A stretch of 32,000 nucleotides of DNA, from NCBI GenBank assembly GCA_046497275.1, contig JAWOFX010000033.1:1-32000 (forward strand), given 5' to 3'. Of the stretch, positions 296 to 28,704 are shown piece after piece. The position numbers and the translations under genes are program-made. This stretch comes from Promethearchaeia archaeon (GTDB lineage Archaea > Asgardarchaeota > Lokiarchaeia > Sigyniarchaeales > SOKP01). Each line of letters opens with the position of its first letter. Position 1 is the stretch's first letter. The notes under the pieces are model-generated. The model was given only the letters and a program-made list of their open reading frames with translations, was not told where the DNA came from and made no database searches.

Positions 296-748
296 ATTAG
301 GTCTATAAATTTTATGGTAAATAAAATTTATATTTTTTCGCATTAATTCTATTTTCTTAAAATTAATAGTTTTCGATTATTCTTTTTAATTAAAAATGTG
401 GATTTTCAAAATAAATAATCCGCTTTATCGCTCAAAAAAGTTCATATAAATATTACTTTTATTAATATTTGGCTATATTGTAAGCACAGTATTTTTATTT
501 GTTTCTCTAATCTTTCGATTATATTATAAAAAAGAATTTATTATTGATAACCTATTTTAATACTCCGATTATCTTAAAAGAGAAACACGACTCACAAACA
601 TTATAAAAAAAATCTTTAAGAATATATTTTGATTTGATGGTATAGACTTACATAATTTAATCAGATTTTGCGTTAGGTTAATGGACCCTAGAAAAAATTG
701 TTAAATTGATTTAAATTTTTTCTACTTAGGCTTTTTATATCTATACCT

Positions 749-1615
749 TTAATCCTCAGAGAATTCATATTGGTGGAAATCAATTATTGGTTTATATCCA
801 ATTTTCATGTAAATACTATTTGAAGTTGGATTCGCCAAATCCGTGAAAAGAAAACAAAATTTATTATTTTCCTCCTCCAGTAAATGTTTACTTAATTTTG
901 CCACGCATTCAGTAGCATAACCTTTTCTTCGCAAATGAGGAGGGGTATATACATAATTGATCAGTCTTCCGTTTGGAGTTTTTCCTGCTTTACGTGCCAT
1001 ACAGACGGGCTTCTCATCATGGAATAATAAATAAAATTTCTTATTGGGAATCTCATCTCGAATAATATTAATGTGATTATTTATGATATCTTGATTTTTT
1101 TCTTCATGAAAAGCCTCGTATAGGAAATTTTTAGCCCAATCAATAATTACATCTTTATGAATTTCTTTCGCAAGCATGAATGTATTGTTACCTAATGTGT
1201 TCTCATTTACAGAGGTTAATTTATAGTTTCTTTCATCCATTACTAGAGTCGATTGTATATTTTTGTGTTCTATCCATAAATTAGCGAATAGATCCGCTCC
1301 CTTTTTGAAACCCAATATTCCTGGTAATACAATATTTCGTTTTGTTAATTGTTTTACAAGAAATTTTATTGTGTCGAGATTTTGACTATATGAGATCACT
1401 AAATTGTATGGAGGGGTTCTGAGAAACACCATTCTAACTTGATTTTTCTGTAATATCGCACCTAATAGTGGTTTTTCTTTTCCATATTTATAAAAATCCT
1501 CCTTCAGTGAATTGAGGATTGAAAATAAAAGAATATTCTCAGTTTCATTCTTAATCAAAAAGGGATACACGAGGTAATAAAACTCCTCAATATCATCAAA
1601 TAATTTGAATTTCAT
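749..1615 (-). CDS. GNAT family N-acetyltransferase (C-terminal GNAT domain)
   Basis: Acetyl-CoA motif VYTPPHLRRKGYA and NPTSNSIYMKIGY. Confidence 0.85.
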   Translation of the reverse strand: MKFKLFDDIEEFYYLVYPFLIKNETENILLFSILNSLKEDFYKYGKEKPLLGAILQKNQVRMVFLRTPPYNLVISYSQNLDTIKFLVKQLTKRNIVLPGILGFKKGADLFANLWIEHKNIQSTLVMDERNYKLTSVNENTLGNNTFMLAKEIHKDVIIDWAKNFLYEAFHEEKNQDIINNHINIIRDEIPNKKFYLLFHDEKPVCMARKAGKTPNGRLINYVYTPPHLRRKGYATECVAKLSKHLLEEENNKFCFLFTDLANPTSNSIYMKIGYKPIIDFHQYEFSED

Positions 1616-1658
1616 AACAAACTTAGTATAACTTATTATTGTTATTATTATTATTTAA

Positions 1659-2243
1659 TTATTTGAACTTTTTACGTCCGAGTAGCGACCATCTTGTCTT
1701 TTCTTTCGGGGCCAGAGCCCCTCCTTTTACAGACTGTACACTCTGAACAGACACAAAAGCATTAGGATGTAATTTTTTAATCATTTCATAAACTTCATTT
1801 AAATCTTTTCGTTTGATAACCATTACAACGAGTTTTACATTTCCCTTCATACCTTCTGCGGTTAATGTGGTTAATCCATAACCTTGTGATTTTAATTCTT
1901 TAATTAATGGCCCGGGATTTTCCTTAAGAATTAAATATACACTTAGTAAACCAAGCGATAATTTTTGTTCAATGATTAGCCCTACATAATTTCCGGTCGC
2001 AAAACCACCAGCATAAGCTATATAATATATGGGATTTGTTAAGTTATTAAAAATTTGTCCCATAGCTATAAGCCAAATTGTTACTTCAAAAAACCCCGCT
2101 AAAGGAGCCAATTTTCGGTTTCCTTGAGAAATAAAAATAATTCTCATAGTTCCAATACTTACATCTCCAACACGCGCTAAAAAAATGAGAATAGGAAGAA
2201 TAATTAATGAAAAAATTTCTAATTCCATATTTTTTTTAACCAA
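1659..2243 (-). CDS. DUF5698/DUF2179 (UPF0316-like) membrane protein
   Basis: N-terminal TM helices with RVGDVSIGTMRII, GFFEVTIW and YAGGFATGNYVG, then a PII-like C-terminal domain (GYGLTTLTAEG...PNAFV). Confidence 0.8.
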   Translation of the reverse strand: MVKKNMELEIFSLIILPILIFLARVGDVSIGTMRIIFISQGNRKLAPLAGFFEVTIWLIAMGQIFNNLTNPIYYIAYAGGFATGNYVGLIIEQKLSLGLLSVYLILKENPGPLIKELKSQGYGLTTLTAEGMKGNVKLVVMVIKRKDLNEVYEMIKKLHPNAFVSVQSVQSVKGGALAPKEKTRWSLLGRKKFK

Positions 2244-2370
2244 TAAAGAAAGTAATTTAGAATAAGAATCTATTATAATTAATTAGTTTTCATTATTTAG
2301 TTTGAAAAATCTTGTCTTTATTTTAAGAAATAAATTTTATTAAAGATATTATATTGAGGGACGTAAGTTT

Positions 2371-2952
2371 TTAACTGTTCCCAACTTTCAAATCTTTAAT
2401 TTTTTGATGAATAAACTTCCAATTTTTTACTCTAATAATATTTTCTCCATCATTCACTTGTCTATTCCATGGTTGATCATATAGAAAAAGGATAGAATTG
2501 TTTTGCTCTCTAATGGCTGCGGCTAAGTGGGGGCTATCATCAATATAAATATCATAATCTAATCTAAGTTTAATATCATAAGGTTTATCATCTACTAAAA
2601 TGAGGCTTTCATAATGAGTTCCTTTTTTAATCCCATGACTTTTAAGTTTTTTCTTAAGCTGTTTTTTGAACTTACTAGTGCGTGCTGAAACAATATCGAT
2701 ATGATTAGTTTTATTTAACTCTTGCAATACATTTAATGCATCTTTATCAATAAAAGGTACTTCTGAAGTCTTTTCATAAATTCTATGAAAAATCTCAAAA
2801 GCTTTGCTTTCATCTATTTCCCATGCTTCGAAAAAATCCCAGCGAATGACATCTCGTTTCTTATAATTTGTCTGATAAAGCTCATTATATACTTCACAAT
2901 ATGTGATCATTAAATCGAGTAATACTCCGTCTACATCAACTGCAATTCTCAT
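2371..2952 (-). CDS. HAD-superfamily 5'(3')-deoxyribonucleotidase-like phosphatase (NT5C-like)
   Basis: Motif I IAVDVDGVL, motif II IVSAR, motif IV IYIDDSP, and DQPWN. Confidence 0.8.
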   Translation of the reverse strand: MRIAVDVDGVLLDLMITYCEVYNELYQTNYKKRDVIRWDFFEAWEIDESKAFEIFHRIYEKTSEVPFIDKDALNVLQELNKTNHIDIVSARTSKFKKQLKKKLKSHGIKKGTHYESLILVDDKPYDIKLRLDYDIYIDDSPHLAAAIREQNNSILFLYDQPWNRQVNDGENIIRVKNWKFIHQKIKDLKVGNS

Positions 2953-3207
2953 GATCTAGATGTGATTTAGCTGTAAATATTATAAACTTAATGCTTAAAA
3001 ATATTTAAAAAACTAATATTATTAAATCATTGTTAAAACTGTTAAGTCATTAATTTTTATTAAATATATTTCCTTTCTAAACTAAAATATCTCTTAAACA
3101 AATTTCTACTAATTAATTAGGATATTTACAAAAATTGTTGAACCCTTAATATTTAAAATTATAATTATGTTTAAATTCTAAAAGTAGTAGAAATATCAAA
3201 TAGAATC

Positions 3208-20763: not shown

Positions 20764-23031
20764 CTATTTTATTGGTCTTGAATTTGCTTGGAAGATGGGG
20801 CCGATGAAACTGCTGTACAATTTTGCGTAAGCCTCCTGATTGCTAATAATACTAATCATGTCAGTCTCTTTATCTGTAAATGGACATATAATAACCTCCT
20901 CAGCATCGCGAGTGACTGCATAATAGTCCCCTTGTTGTGCCAATTGTCGGAATTGAATATTTCCCAATTGCTTCATTTTTCCGATTATATTACCATATTG
21001 TCCCATATCAAAATTACTCGTAAGCATGAATCTAGCGGCTTTTTTCTGAAATGCATATTCAGATATAACTTGGAGTACATCCGGAACTGGAACTGGAGTT
21101 ACAATAATTATAGACGATTTTGTTCGATATACTGCATCCTTTATCGCCGAGATCAACGCGTGCTTGCCTACTGTATGCCAAGTGGTAATTTTTGATATTT
21201 CTGGAATTGATTTAGATGCTTGAAAAATATCCATTACTTTCTCCTCATTCACTTCTCCTTTTTCTGTTGCATCATCAATTGAATTCATGAATTCTAACGT
21301 AAAATCCGCAATAGCATCTTTAATATTTTGGGTAGTCGCTTTTGTAGTGTCAGAAAGGCTGTTTTGTAATTTTGTTGCGTTATCCTTATATTTTGACTTG
21401 TGATCTTCAAGCATATTACCTAAATTTGAATTTAATTCCTTAGATTCATTATCCCATTCTGCAATATGCCCATTTATTTTATCCGATACATTTTTTTTTG
21501 CATCGCTGAATTTATAATCAACATCTTTAGTCCATGTTTCATTTTGGAGTTTAATTTCTTTATCAAATTCAGTATAATGCCCCAAACTGCCCTCTTGATG
21601 GCGATTAATAGCTTCATCATATTTTCGATGATGCTCAGCAAAAGATTTCTCAACAGAGTCCTTTAATTTAATAGTGGTATCAGAACAATCATCAATTCCA
21701 GATTTAAACGTATCATCAATTTCCACTGTAAGATCAGAAGCTAAATTCTCAAGTTGGATATCAACTTTTTCCTGTGCTTCTTGATTTAGCTCTGTTGTTT
21801 CTCCTGATAATTTATTGTTTTCATTTGAAATAATTTCAGTCAGTTCGCTTTTCACTTCATCAGTAGTACTTTTGTCGGTTGTTATGAACCCTTCACTTTC
21901 ATTAACAAAATCCTCTTTTAAAGGTTTAGAATAAGTAAGAATATCTTCTCTTACTTGAGCATAACGGGCTTTATATTTTTTATGTTGCCCAAATAGTAAT
22001 GCTTTAAAAGCAGATCCTCTACTTGCTAAATCATCAGATAAATCAGTAAAACGACCAGAAATCTCTAATAAGTTTTCTATTAATTGAACCGTTTTATTTT
22101 TAAAATCTGTTGTTTGCTTATCAACTTCTGCATGTTTCTTATTAAAAGTTGCTTTCAAATCTTCTTGCAAGACATCAGTTGTATTTTTCAGATGATTAAT
22201 ATGGCGAGTTAATAAGGTATCTATCTTATCTTTTAATTCATTGACAATCTTGTCCATCCTATCAAGATATTTTTCAAGAATCATTTCCGTTTTGGGTTTA
22301 AGCTCATTCGCTGTGGTTTTATGACGTTCTACGTGTCCATCCAAATCTTTCTTTATTTCTGTTTCTAACCCACTAATCCTATTTGAAAAATCATCTAAAA
22401 GATCTGATATGATGCCTTTTAAGTTATTTTTTGTCTGATTAATTTCATTCTCATTATTCTGCACAAAAGATTCTGAAATGTTTTTCAAATCTGTATTTAA
22501 AGAATTCATTATAGAATGAATATTAGACTCAAGATTCTTTTCTGTGTTTGTGAATCTCTCCTTAGCTCCGTTTATCCTATTTTCTTTATTTGTATTTTTA
22601 ACGTCAGAATCTTCAAAGAAACTATTAATTTGTGAACTTACTGCATTTTCCACTTTTCCAATACTCTGATTTTGAATTCCTTCAAGTTTTTCAAAACGAT
22701 TAGATTGATCTGTGAGTACTCTATCCTTAATATCAGCGATTTCTTCTCTAAATGTCTCGGACTCATTAATAAATAATTCAAAAAATGGCTCAAGAGGAAT
22801 ATATCTCGTTACAACTCCTTCAACTTCCTTAAGGAACCCCTTATCTACGAGTTTATTGGTAATCTCGACAACCCTTTCAAATTCTATTGCATTTTCATCT
22901 TCTTCTTCGAAGGAAAAATATACCTCTGAAACTGTCGCGCGAGGAACCCTAAGGTAAACTAAATAAATTTTTATATCATCTTCATCAAGACCATATCTTG
23001 TGAAGATTTTTTTTGTAAATTCTTTCAACAT
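20764..23031 (-). CDS. TrmB-like protein: N-terminal wHTH, ~520-aa hendecad helical region, C-terminal TrmB effector (PLD-like) domain
   Basis: N-term YGLDEDDIKIYL...ATVSEV...LVDKGFL...RYIPLEP. C-term TWHTVGKHALISAIKDAVYRTKSSIIIVTP...RDAEEVII. GGAG SD-like sequence upstream. Confidence 0.65.
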   Translation of the reverse strand: MLKEFTKKIFTRYGLDEDDIKIYLVYLRVPRATVSEVYFSFEEEDENAIEFERVVEITNKLVDKGFLKEVEGVVTRYIPLEPFFELFINESETFREEIADIKDRVLTDQSNRFEKLEGIQNQSIGKVENAVSSQINSFFEDSDVKNTNKENRINGAKERFTNTEKNLESNIHSIMNSLNTDLKNISESFVQNNENEINQTKNNLKGIISDLLDDFSNRISGLETEIKKDLDGHVERHKTTANELKPKTEMILEKYLDRMDKIVNELKDKIDTLLTRHINHLKNTTDVLQEDLKATFNKKHAEVDKQTTDFKNKTVQLIENLLEISGRFTDLSDDLASRGSAFKALLFGQHKKYKARYAQVREDILTYSKPLKEDFVNESEGFITTDKSTTDEVKSELTEIISNENNKLSGETTELNQEAQEKVDIQLENLASDLTVEIDDTFKSGIDDCSDTTIKLKDSVEKSFAEHHRKYDEAINRHQEGSLGHYTEFDKEIKLQNETWTKDVDYKFSDAKKNVSDKINGHIAEWDNESKELNSNLGNMLEDHKSKYKDNATKLQNSLSDTTKATTQNIKDAIADFTLEFMNSIDDATEKGEVNEEKVMDIFQASKSIPEISKITTWHTVGKHALISAIKDAVYRTKSSIIIVTPVPVPDVLQVISEYAFQKKAARFMLTSNFDMGQYGNIIGKMKQLGNIQFRQLAQQGDYYAVTRDAEEVIICPFTDKETDMISIISNQEAYAKLYSSFIGPIFQANSRPIK
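21247..21642 (-). repeat. Protein-level hendecad repeats, residues 464-595
   Basis: 12 consecutive 11-mers, e.g. FSDAKKNVSDK/INGHIAEWDNE/SKELNSNLGNM/LEDHKSKYKDN/ATKLQNSLSDT. Confidence 0.65.
22048..22509 (-). repeat. Protein-level 11-residue (hendecad) repeats, residues 175-328 of the 755-aa protein
   Basis: 14 consecutive 11-mers, e.g. LDGHVERHKTT/ANELKPKTEMI/LEKYLDRMDKI/VNELKDKIDTL/LTRHINHLKNT, with hydrophobic residues favoured at positions 1, 4/5 and 8. Confidence 0.7.
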
Positions 23032-26558: not shown

Positions 26559-26692
26559 GATAAAAGTAAATGAATGGATCAATTAAAGTATATTAAATTT
26601 TGAAATATTTGTTTAATGGGAAACTTTATCCCTCATTTTTTAAAAAGGAAATTAAACTTTTTACTCTTAGAACAACTTTAGGTTGAAAAAAA

Positions 26693-27361
26693 ATGAAAAA
26701 AACTAATAAAATCTTTATGGTTGCTTTTGCCACTTTTTTGATTTTGGCATGGATAGGTTCTCCATTAATTGTAGCGGCACAAGATCCAATGACTTCTCGG
26801 AATTACGAAATCGCATCCGGTGAAACTTATGAAAATGGAAACATTACTCGAATAAGGGTAAGAAATCAACTTAACCAATTTAACATTTCAGGAGTGATTC
26901 AATGGGAAGGAAAAATAGGAGAGAAAGATTTCATCATAGAAGTTACAGATACCTCTGGAGATATGGAAATGAATATGACATGCAACGAAGAACAAGAAGA
27001 ATTAGGATTATTAATGGGAAATAGATACACTATTAGAAATCGAAATCGTTATAGATATCAAGAAGGATTCGCTGTAAATTTAAGTTGTAACTGTTCTGAG
27101 ATTCAAGCAAGATTGAGAATTAAAGCTACTAATCAAAATCGAAATGGAGAATGGGCATTTTATAACGGAGATAATGAACAATGGGAGACTGTTTCAACAA
27201 GCAATGTAGATGGTTATTTAACTGCTACAACGGATCATTTCTCTGTTTGGACAATATTGATTCCTGAAACAAACTTTACTTTATGGATTATTCTTGGCGG
27301 TTCTGTTGCAGCCGTTGCAGCTTTAGGAATTGTAGTTTATCTTTATAAGAGAAAGAGATAA
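26693..27361 (+). CDS. Type I membrane surface protein with a GPS/GAIN-like autoproteolysis motif (H182-F183-S184)
   Basis: Signal peptide, beta-rich ectodomain with N-glycosylation sequons, WAFYN...WETVST...TATTDHFSVWTIL, C-terminal TM helix and KRKR tail. Confidence 0.65.
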   Translation: MKKTNKIFMVAFATFLILAWIGSPLIVAAQDPMTSRNYEIASGETYENGNITRIRVRNQLNQFNISGVIQWEGKIGEKDFIIEVTDTSGDMEMNMTCNEEQEELGLLMGNRYTIRNRNRYRYQEGFAVNLSCNCSEIQARLRIKATNQNRNGEWAFYNGDNEQWETVSTSNVDGYLTATTDHFSVWTILIPETNFTLWIILGGSVAAVAALGIVVYLYKRKR

Positions 27362-27444
27362 AAGTGGCTTCTAATTTAACGAAAATATTATTTATTTTTT
27401 TTATTTTTTATATATTATAAACATAAATAAATCTAAGGATAACT

Positions 27445-28704
27445 TTGAAATTGACAAATAATAAGAAAATAATGATCTCTCTTTTTTGTATATTATTAGT
27501 TATTTTTGAATTTAATTTAGTCATATTCAATATTAAAGGAGAAGATATTTCAGGATTTTCCACATATTATAATCAAAATCCAATTCAAAACCAAACTGTA
27601 TATTACAATTTTGATAATTCTATCCATTTTGGAATATCAACAAATGTATCAGTTAATGGTAAAATTGAATTTGATTCAGCAATTACCAATAGAGACACCC
27701 TCATTATTATAGGAAATGAGCAACCTGCAACCATAAATTTCACCTCCAAAACGGATATTGACGGATTCGATTTCCAAAAGAAACCCAAAGGACCTTCGGG
27801 GGGCAATTTTCAATATAAATATCAATTTAATTATATCCTTCAAATCAAAGCAAATATTACAATCACAAATGTAACAATTCATTATCTAAAAATACAAAGA
27901 TATGGATTAAATCCCAATGGAGATTATAAAATAGCACGATTTCGGAAAGGAGATGAATCATGGGAACTTTTATCAACAGAGGAAAAAATAAATGAAAGCA
28001 CGGGAGAACCTTATCTAGAAACCCAAATTTATGATTTGGATGCAAATAATGAAGACTACATTACCATATTTCAAGTTACTCGAATTTCTTATGATTGGAT
28101 ATGGATTATCGTCATCATTGCAGTAGTGAGTATTGCTGGCTTAGCAATTCTTCTTTCTAAGAAAGAATATATTCAATTTCTTAAAACTCGAACAGTTCCT
28201 GTTGATAAAGGTGCTCATCAACTATCTATGGAGGATGTTTTAGATAATGAAAATCGAAATAAAATTATCGATTTAATATTAGATAAACCTGGTATTCATT
28301 TTAATGAACTTTTACGTGAAACTAACTTATCTGCTGGTAATCTTGCTTGGCATTTAGATATATTAGGAACTTATAAAGTGATTGGAAAAAAGCGGATAGG
28401 GCGATACCTTGTCTATTTTCCATATTATGAAAAAAATCCTATATCAAATATTGACTTGAAACTTCAGAAGAGTGAATTAACATTAGAAATTTTGGAAATG
28501 ATTGAAGTTCAACCTGGGACATATAATAATCAAATTGCGAAACAATTGAATTTAGATCATAAAACTGTCTCTTATCATATCAATAAACTAAAAGATTTAG
28601 GTTTAATACATTCTGAAAAATCTGGAAGGAAAAAGAAATTATATCCTAATTTAGAAGCGGAGTATTTTAACAATCATAATCATAATAACAATGATAATGA
28701 GTAA
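27445..28704 (+). CDS. Membrane-tethered transcription regulator: signal peptide, ectodomain, TM helix, tandem winged-HTH (COG3398-like)
   Basis: TM WIWIIVIIAVVSIAGLAILL; wHTH1 NRNKIIDLILDKPGIHFNELLRETNLSAGNLAWHL; wHTH2 ILEMIEVQPGTYNNQIAKQLNLDHKTVSYHINKL. TTG start. Confidence 0.8.
   Translation: MKLTNNKKIMISLFCILLVIFEFNLVIFNIKGEDISGFSTYYNQNPIQNQTVYYNFDNSIHFGISTNVSVNGKIEFDSAITNRDTLIIIGNEQPATINFTSKTDIDGFDFQKKPKGPSGGNFQYKYQFNYILQIKANITITNVTIHYLKIQRYGLNPNGDYKIARFRKGDESWELLSTEEKINESTGEPYLETQIYDLDANNEDYITIFQVTRISYDWIWIIVIIAVVSIAGLAILLSKKEYIQFLKTRTVPVDKGAHQLSMEDVLDNENRNKIIDLILDKPGIHFNELLRETNLSAGNLAWHLDILGTYKVIGKKRIGRYLVYFPYYEKNPISNIDLKLQKSELTLEILEMIEVQPGTYNNQIAKQLNLDHKTVSYHINKLKDLGLIHSEKSGRKKKLYPNLEAEYFNNHNHNNNDNE

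Follow-up and report, generated by a model that had tools for sequence, protein, structure and literature searches.

A predicted MAIN-type surface protein and a paralogous transmembrane transcription regulator encoded as a conserved gene pair in Loki-type Asgard archaea

Introduction

Bacterial and archaeal modules that resemble the GAIN domain were defined in a May 2026 preprint as MAIN (Microbial Autoproteolysis INducing) domains (Brogan and Rudner, bioRxiv 10.64898/2026.05.12.724683). Here, we describe two adjacent archaeal genes, called A and B, of which the first appears to encode a minimal protein of this type and the second a membrane-bound transcription regulator with a related ectodomain. 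Both lie in the stretch of 32,000 nucleotides that was analysed (the window; positions 1-32,000 of JAWOFX010000033.1, to which the gene coordinates refer), which is AT-rich (G+C about 29%) and whose genes have their nearest database proteins in metagenome-assembled genomes (MAGs) of Lokiarchaeota/Promethearchaeota.

In the MAIN protein YfkN, the chain is cut between F and S of an HFS motif, as determined by Edman sequencing; the substitution S1346A abolishes cleavage, and the fragments remain associated (bioRxiv 10.64898/2026.05.12.724683). The six bacterial MAIN domains tested all cleave at an HFS-type motif in this structural position, and the MAIN proteins surveyed have a mean mass of 158 kDa and carry adhesion or enzyme passengers, which the domain is proposed to free as cargo from the cell surface; according to its discoverers, no signalling mechanism is associated with the anchored C-terminal fragment (bioRxiv 10.64898/2026.05.12.724683). 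The same preprint makes no mention of Asgard archaea, transcription factors or tandem repeats, and no paper pairing "Asgard" with "GAIN domain" was found in the literature.

Two groups of eukaryotic domains are also close in fold, namely the GAIN domains of adhesion G-protein-coupled receptors (GPCRs) and the ZU5/FIIND domains of the cytoplasmic proteins PIDD1, CARD8 and NLRP1. PIDD1 cuts at HFS. On the regulatory side, transmembrane transcription regulators have been surveyed as a class (PMC10269533), and co-component regulators comprise ToxR/ToxS, TcpP/TcpH and VtrA/VtrC (Kinch et al., 2022, as cited in PMC10269533).

Layout of Genes A and B

The open reading frames 26693-27361 and 27445-28704 are co-oriented and 83 nucleotides apart, as stated in an earlier note on this DNA. 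Their features are as follows.

26693..27361, + strand: gene A, 222 amino acids, predicted minimal MAIN/GAIN-like surface protein; signal peptide (about residues 1-29), beta-sandwich (about 45-192), transmembrane helix (197-218) and KRKR tail
27236..27244, + strand: codons of His182-Phe183-Ser184 of A, predicted autoproteolysis site with the cut at Phe183/Ser184
27281..27346, + strand: transmembrane anchor of A, after the last beta-strand SVWTILIPE; helix 195-221 in the model
27445..28704, + strand: gene B, 419 amino acids, TTG start, transmembrane transcription regulator; N-terminal signal or anchor, putative pseudo-MAIN ectodomain (33-215), transmembrane helix (217-237) and tandem winged helix-turn-helix (wHTH) domains
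27541..28089, + strand: ectodomain of B, apparent paralog of the A domain without the catalytic turn
28033..28056, + strand: hairpin loop DLDANNED of B (residues 197-204), in place of the DHFS turn of A
28246..28614, + strand: two cytoplasmic winged helices of B, HTH_HVO_0163_N (268-326) and HTH_24/ArsR-like (344-390)

Each product is read from its sequence as having a signal or anchor segment, an ectodomain rich in N-x-S/T sites and one transmembrane helix, and the helices are also modelled, in agreement with the earlier description. The signal-like segment at the N-terminus of A ends VAA/QD, and the N-terminal hydrophobic segment of B can be read as a signal peptide or as an anchor that is not removed.

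Gene A: a Minimal MAIN-Type Domain

The AlphaFold 2 (AF2) model of A has a pLDDT of 69 overall and of 85-90 over residues 130-190. Its best matches among solved structures (VIA-align) are the GAIN domains of the adhesion GPCRs BAI3 (4dlo; Z 9.4, root-mean-square deviation 3.7, 136 residues aligned), CD97 (8ikj/9mqr; Z 9.2) and CELSR1 (8vy2; Z 8.9), with 136-137 residues aligned in each case, followed by the autoproteolytic ZU5/FIIND domains of CARD8 (FIIND, Z 8.6) and ankyrin (ZU5, Z 8.2). GAIN/ZU5 families are again returned by Foldseek (probability 0.99-1.0). Among AlphaFold models of Swiss-Prot, residues 51-194 of A match residues 1219-1356 of B. subtilis YfkN, in an alignment that stops 10 residues past S184 of A and 10 past S1346 of YfkN, and further matches are the S. 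agalactiae IgA Fc receptor, many adhesion GPCRs and PIDD1. At the level of sequence, Pfam and NCBIfam gave nothing above cut-off for A, with weak anchor-like matches only (PGF-CTERM, LPXTG); neither ZU5 (PF00791) nor GPS (PF01825) matched A, there being no Pfam match at E <= 1 besides the anchor-like ones, and a profile search of PDB sequences returned chance matches only, to picornavirus VP2.

The HFS motif that had been noticed in A (DHFS, residues 181-184), in a protein whose cytoplasmic tail is KRKR only, is placed by the model in the turn between the last two strands (175-180 and 185-191). About 55 homologs of A were found, every one from Asgard MAGs, and in an alignment of 21 of them H182, F183, S184 and W186 are invariant at an overall identity of about 45%. 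Because a GAIN_B/ZU5-like fold is combined with an invariant HFS at the position at which YfkN and GAIN domains are cut, A can be assigned to the MAIN type on modelled fold and motif, as a minimal form without a passenger domain. The earlier proposal of a self-cleaving type of surface protein thus stands as regards fold and motif, and cleavage between Phe183 and Ser184 is probable by analogy with the proteins that share both.

If the HFS were instead structural, A would remain uncleaved, and A and B would be ordinary beta-sandwich envelope proteins that resemble adhesion receptors in fold only. Some GAIN and ZU5 domains indeed do not cleave, the catalytic turn of A is known from a model, and long paralogs of A in which Thr, Ile or Val replaces the His (TLS, ILS, VLS) are still maintained. 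Nevertheless, H, F, S and the following W are all invariant in the paired A family, the remainder of which is only about 45% identical, and the same motif at the same position cleaves in every one of the bacterial MAIN domains tested (bioRxiv 10.64898/2026.05.12.724683), so that a purely structural role appears very improbable.

Like YfkN and the IgA Fc receptor, A has a GAIN_B-like sandwich, an HFS turn before the last strand, an export signal and an anchor C-terminal to the domain (here a transmembrane helix followed by KRKR). It differs in three respects. First, no passenger is evident: the sandwich is separated from the signal peptide by only about 20 residues, modelled with low confidence, and the whole protein has 222 amino acids as against the mean of 158 kDa. 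Second, it is anchored by a transmembrane helix, whereas MAIN proteins are anchored by sortase or an SLH domain. Third, its gene is linked to that of a transcription regulator, whereas the C-terminal fragment of MAIN proteins is stated to have no signalling connected with it (bioRxiv 10.64898/2026.05.12.724683). An archaeosortase (PF09721) was not found in the genome of the window, which is 98.9% complete, whereas a control genome was matched; processing of the C-terminus of A by such an enzyme was therefore rejected, and the C-terminus looks like a plain transmembrane anchor.

As in the GAIN domains of adhesion GPCRs, the predicted cut site of A has the form H-hydrophobic-S/T and lies one strand ahead of the membrane, the ectodomain would be held non-covalently, and the strand SVWTILIPE occupies a position equivalent to that of a tethered peptide. 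However, A lacks the helical GAIN_A subdomain, the conserved GPS disulfides and the seven-transmembrane domain, having a single transmembrane helix and a four-residue tail, and the candidate transducer is here a separate paralogous protein with a DNA-binding output. The ZU5/FIIND proteins share the fold (with the CARD8 match to A given above), but they are cytoplasmic and eukaryotic, and the Pfam ZU5 family has no sequence match to either A or B.

Domains of the A type also occur in other arrangements. Four archaeal proteins (P0096, P0097, P0098 and P0100) contain two or three A-type domains in tandem, each with DHFSxWT, followed by one C-terminal transmembrane helix; if every copy cleaves, such a protein would be a chain of non-covalently joined links. 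In four Asgard families (f26, f18, f19 and f32), larger proteins (frames of 360-560 amino acids) resemble the A profile in its C-terminal part alone, that is, in the HFS region and the transmembrane helix, and these look like conventional MAIN proteins with additional N-terminal domains.

Gene B: a Transmembrane Regulator with a Paralogous Ectodomain

The cytoplasmic part of B is recognized by Pfam as HTH_HVO_0163_N (PF24266, E 1.8e-16, 60.4 bits against a cut-off of 31) and HTH_24 (PF13412, residues 344-388, E 3.4e-16, 59 bits against a cut-off of 21.9), and the transmembrane segment at 217-237 is modelled as a helix (217-238). Since a DNA-binding domain and a transmembrane helix are predicted in one chain, B is by its sequence a transmembrane transcription regulator. 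Among hundreds of Asgard MAG proteins of about 416 amino acids, the cytoplasmic half is conserved at about 70% identity, whereas the ectodomain diverges much faster (p-distance 0.69 vs 0.35 for the cytoplasmic part).

The two ectodomains had been aligned by eye, block for block, in the earlier note. Pairwise BLASTP of A against B is marginal (E 8e-4), and the question of paralogy was decided by family profiles. When an alignment of A homologs was compared by HHalign with one of B homologs from the loci adjoining those A genes, the full proteins matched with 98.7% probability (E 1.9e-16), and after removal of signal peptides and transmembrane helices a match of 96.8% probability remained (E 2.6e-10, 139 columns). 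Searches of whole genomes were reciprocal: the A hidden Markov model (HMM) recovered the B ectodomains of further genomes (E 1e-7 to 1e-13), and the B HMM recovered A (E 1e-8 to 1e-16). The B ectodomain is modelled by AF2 with a pLDDT of 90.6 and has the same strand order as A; the B model matches an ESM-Atlas model of a 229-amino-acid Promethearchaeota cluster (TM-score 0.72/0.69 over 186 residues), which a feature search identified as A's own cluster. Its matches to solved GAIN (Z 5.0-6.2) and ZU5 domains (Z 5.5-5.8) are weaker than those of A, and a PIDD1-type ZU5 cluster of the ESM Atlas is matched at a TM-score of 0.51. Judged by profiles and models, the ectodomains of A and B are true paralogs with one shared fold, and the by-eye alignment was real.

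The hairpin that carries the catalytic turn in A is altered in B, where DLDANNED stands at the equivalent position. No conserved His or Ser/Thr is present there in the B family alignment, and H-x-S/T within the 45 residues before the transmembrane helix is absent in 131 of the 132 B-type proteins that have a recognisable helix (140 were retrieved). In the single exception, P0107, an HLT aligns to the preceding strand and not to the turn. Because the catalytic H-x-S/T turn is replaced across the family, the B ectodomain is read from sequence as an uncleavable pseudo-MAIN domain. The expected contrast of an HFS kept in A and lost in B is thus borne out, with the motif invariant in the 21 paired-type A homologs and no H-x-S/T turn in 131 B relatives, and so is the description of B as a membrane-tethered paralog with tandem wHTH domains inside the cell that has lost the cleavage motif. 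A single-chain MAIN regulator, that is, a B-type protein that keeps HFS, was sought as well, and none occurs among the 140 B-type proteins retrieved.

At one locus (G283:C206:2956-3593, - strand), the B gene beside an intact A holds two in-frame stop codons (TAG, TAA) and may be a pseudogene.

A and B as a Conserved Cassette

The distribution of the genes was surveyed in 301 Asgard genomes, which include the family of the window (f1, 68 genomes) and a sister family (f2, 7 genomes). A is present in 60/68 genomes of f1 and 7/7 of f2, and the B ectodomain in 60/68 and 6/7, respectively. In f1 the two occupy the same 60 genomes, and the same eight are without both, four of these being at least 94% complete. 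When the match tables were read by eye, A lay directly upstream of B on the same strand at 61 of 62 strong B loci, and the exception (G209:C221) is possibly cut off by a contig end. Likewise, of the 25 A loci that were fetched, 24 are followed by B or, where A is in tandem copy, are part of a cassette ending in B, with spacers of 38-83 nucleotides; the one remaining locus holds a second A copy of G018. The arrangement is kept at L007 and L029, despite an A identity of only 37% and flanking genes without kinship to those in the window, and also in f2, where the B proteins are divergent (428-470 amino acids) and one locus has two tandem A copies. A and B therefore form a conserved two-gene cassette, which, within the range of the searches, occurs in Loki-type Asgard archaea only, and the pairing on which the earlier note had staked its reading holds even at loci with different flanks.

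Divergence of A tracks that of the B ectodomain beyond that of the B cytoplasmic part (partial r 0.51; 0/2000 permutations), a weak signal that saturation could mimic. A predicted complex of the A ectodomain (45-195) with the B ectodomain scored 0.00, which is no answer and counts neither for nor against an interaction. Given the conservation of the pair, a functional partnership of A and B is rather likely, and it has parallels in other regulators encoded beside a membrane partner.

Among these are ToxR/ToxS, TcpP/TcpH and VtrA/VtrC, in which, as here, a membrane regulator with an extracytoplasmic domain is encoded beside a small single-pass membrane partner. The earlier comparison with the ToxR/ToxS type is retained as an analogy of logic and given up in its particulars of topology, DNA-binding domain and partner fold. 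B has the reverse topology, with the ectodomain first and the DNA-binding part C-terminal; its wHTH domains are two in number and ArsR/MarR-like, where the ToxR type has a single OmpR-type domain; and the partner is GAIN-like and a paralog of the sensor domain rather than lipocalin-like, with its gene placed first. The anti-sigma factors of the RsgI type, with their SEAL domain, provide a further parallel, in that their extracytoplasmic domain cleaves itself, is kept in place by non-covalent contacts and is coupled to transcription. RsgI is, however, one chain with an SEA-like fold, whereas here the cleaving domain and the regulator would be separate paralogous chains.

The Promoter Element and the A-B Spacer

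Three further features lie in the non-coding DNA of the cassette.

26617..26637, + strand: conserved element TGGGAAACTTTATCCCTCATT, an imperfect palindrome about 75 nucleotides before the start codon of A, candidate operator
26636..26648, + strand: TATA-like box TTTTTTAAAAAGG of A, immediately after the element, read from the sequence as a putative promoter
27388..27409, + strand: T-rich run in the A-B spacer, with a putative function in expression

The palindrome TGGGAAACTTTATCCCTCATT can be read as GGGA-N7-TCCC or as GGAA-N5-TTCC. It aligns across five loci, including distant ones, and an equivalent box TTTTTATA comes after it at other loci. Most f1 loci have the element with 0-3 mismatches at 60-87 nucleotides from the start codon, a match that for most of them is reached in 0/200 shuffles, and in f2 it is visible in degenerate form. 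A 30-nucleotide promoter signature, TGGGRAWAnTTRYMCCTYAATCCTTTTTATA, is found also before the orphan long A genes described below, in all of which the element lies about 73 nucleotides upstream. In a search of the whole genome G137, the extended pattern matched only two promoters, those of A and of the long A gene, with 0 control matches. In the window's own genome the element is unique to the A promoter; three pattern searches for a regulon there gave no enrichment over controls.

Because the palindrome could be covered by one chain with two wHTH domains, B is a natural candidate for its binder and autoregulation is a natural idea. The element is, however, also found before a gene for a secreted HEFQH metalloprotease of 781 amino acids and a small gene of 115 amino acids in G203, and before the orthologous metalloprotease gene in G148, a genome without A and B. 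B therefore remains a candidate only, and binding of the palindrome by its tandem wHTH is a doubtful proposal. The metalloprotease loci (secreted, about 780 amino acids, HEFQH) are as follows.

L047: element at 528-552, gene at 605-2950
L048: element at 617-641, gene at 685-3018

The metalloprotease bears on a reading in which A guards B against regulated proteolysis, in the manner of TcpH/TcpP or SEAL/RsgI: intact A would shield B from a site-1 or intramembrane protease, and shedding of the A ectodomain would lead to cutting of B and release of its wHTH part into the cytoplasm, where it would act on DNA. It fits the same setting as the co-component explanation proposed below, and the juxtamembrane SKKEY motif and cytoplasmic part of B share about 70% identity across Asgard MAGs, and Pro or Gly occurs in several transmembrane helices of the family; an element common to A and a secreted metalloprotease gene in relatives also hints at a protease in the regulon. 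Yet no protease gene is conserved beside the cassette, the genome of the window is without the HEFQH metalloprotease gene, and membrane regulators of the ToxR/CadC kind can work while still tethered. We consider such a guarding role improbable.

A run of T7-T13 is present in every A-B spacer examined, 20-40 nucleotides before the start codon of B. It may act as an archaeal terminator or attenuator, through which more A than B would be made, or it may belong to the B promoter (as the TATA region of a leaderless B transcript).

Neighboring Genes

The divergent GH2 gene and the downstream nitroreductase gene had been named as candidate targets of B. Neither is a conserved neighbor outside close relatives, and neither carries the element. 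GH2 and an adjacent purple-acid-phosphatase-like gene sit between A and its usual divergent neighbor only in the window and L001, and both are absent at L007; the nitroreductase is syntenic among close relatives only. The usual divergent neighbor abuts A directly in L002 and L003 and lies in the window as follows.

20764-23031, - strand: 755 amino acids, TrmB-like (weak TrmB-type wHTH at the N-terminus), containing a long coiled coil that resembles apolipoproteins

GH2 and nitroreductase were rejected as targets on these grounds, nothing being found that ties either gene to the cassette; the sole non-coding element that is conserved belongs to the promoter of A itself and accompanies genes of the A type.

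Relatives of A and B Outside the Cassette

Both proteins have paralogs that occur apart from the cassette.

L009:2976-3905 (- strand), L039, L040, L041, L005:5001-5834 and L006:5001-5768: longer A paralogs with a Cys-rich (CxC) insert and no adjoining B
L008:3-1103 (G000:C171), - strand: B2, a B paralog in the window's genome, cut off by the contig end
L008:1264-1827, - strand: B2 partner gene upstream of B2, single-pass membrane protein of 187 amino acids

Orphan A paralogs without a neighboring B are found in L005, L006, L009 and L026. Among the long paralogs, HFS is kept in L041, L005 and L006, and the His is lost in the others (TLS, ILS or VLS). B2 is accompanied in five genomes (including L032-L035) by its own conserved upstream gene, whose product is a single-pass membrane protein of 182-196 amino acids; kinship of this partner with A or B was rejected, as HHalign against the two profiles gave about 1% probability. 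The layout in which a gene for a small single-pass membrane protein is followed by this type of regulator therefore recurs, and such recurrence fits a co-component logic like that of ToxR/ToxS. At the same time, neither an A-type nor a B-type protein strictly needs the other as its neighbor.

These paralogs speak for a reading in which A and B are tandem duplicates with independent jobs, A as a shed or breakable surface protein and B as the sensor of an unrelated extracellular ligand, with adjacency left over from duplication and shared regulation. The T-run that separates A from B in every spacer would suit such independence, as would the faster divergence of the B ectodomain compared with A (p-distance 0.69 vs 0.57). 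It is harder to reconcile with a protein that, unlike typical MAIN proteins, has no passenger to release, with adjacency, order and strand that are maintained in about 60 genomes, down to 37% identity of A and amid different flanks, and with the small membrane-protein gene that B2 regulators also keep upstream. On this balance, independent functions seem unlikely.

A Model for the Cassette

The explanation that we favor, with modest confidence, is that the cassette encodes a co-component transmembrane signalling device in which one fold is used twice. A would be exported, anchored by its C-terminal helix and cut by itself between Phe183 and Ser184, and the resulting ectodomain (about 17 kDa) would be held non-covalently on the membrane-anchored last strand, from which it could be lost by force, ligand or damage. 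The ectodomain of B would contact A-type ectodomains and report their presence or integrity to the cytoplasm, and B would then alter transcription, plausibly including that of the cassette or of the A-type genes themselves. Release of cargo, the role proposed for MAIN domains in general, cannot be that of A, because A has neither a passenger domain nor a cytoplasmic output. In a more specific form, the device would be a split archaeal counterpart of an adhesion receptor, in which autoproteolysed A acts as a fuse whose dissociation through force, contact or damage is read by the pseudo-GAIN protein B, which adjusts the transcription of A-type surface genes; we put this form forward tentatively, as a possibility that falls short of being probable.

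Several observations weigh against the proposed device. The N-terminal half of the A model is moderately confident only. All genomes with the pair fall in one archaeal order, so that the counts of pair-bearing genomes are not independent, and the joint absence of two adjacent genes can be explained by a single deletion. The orphan A paralogs have no B beside them, and B2 is paired with a partner unrelated to A. The element stands before the metalloprotease gene of a genome that has neither A nor B, and the T-run in every spacer points to possible termination of A transcripts ahead of B.

Significance

MAIN domains themselves are already known; what is new here is a MAIN-type domain without cargo that is locked to a paralogous pseudo-MAIN regulator. 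The cassette is a natural candidate for the intracellular readout of a breakable extracellular joint in a prokaryote. The system is small (222 + 419 amino acids) and has an evident candidate operator, and cleavage, binding and DNA recognition are directly testable in vitro. Because all cassettes found by the searches belong to Loki-type Asgard archaea, the system bears on the origin of the GAIN/adhesion-receptor logic of eukaryotes. If the reading as a split receptor is true, the cassette would provide the first example of a microbial MAIN domain that signals into the cell bearing it, and would do so in the archaeal lineage nearest to eukaryotes.

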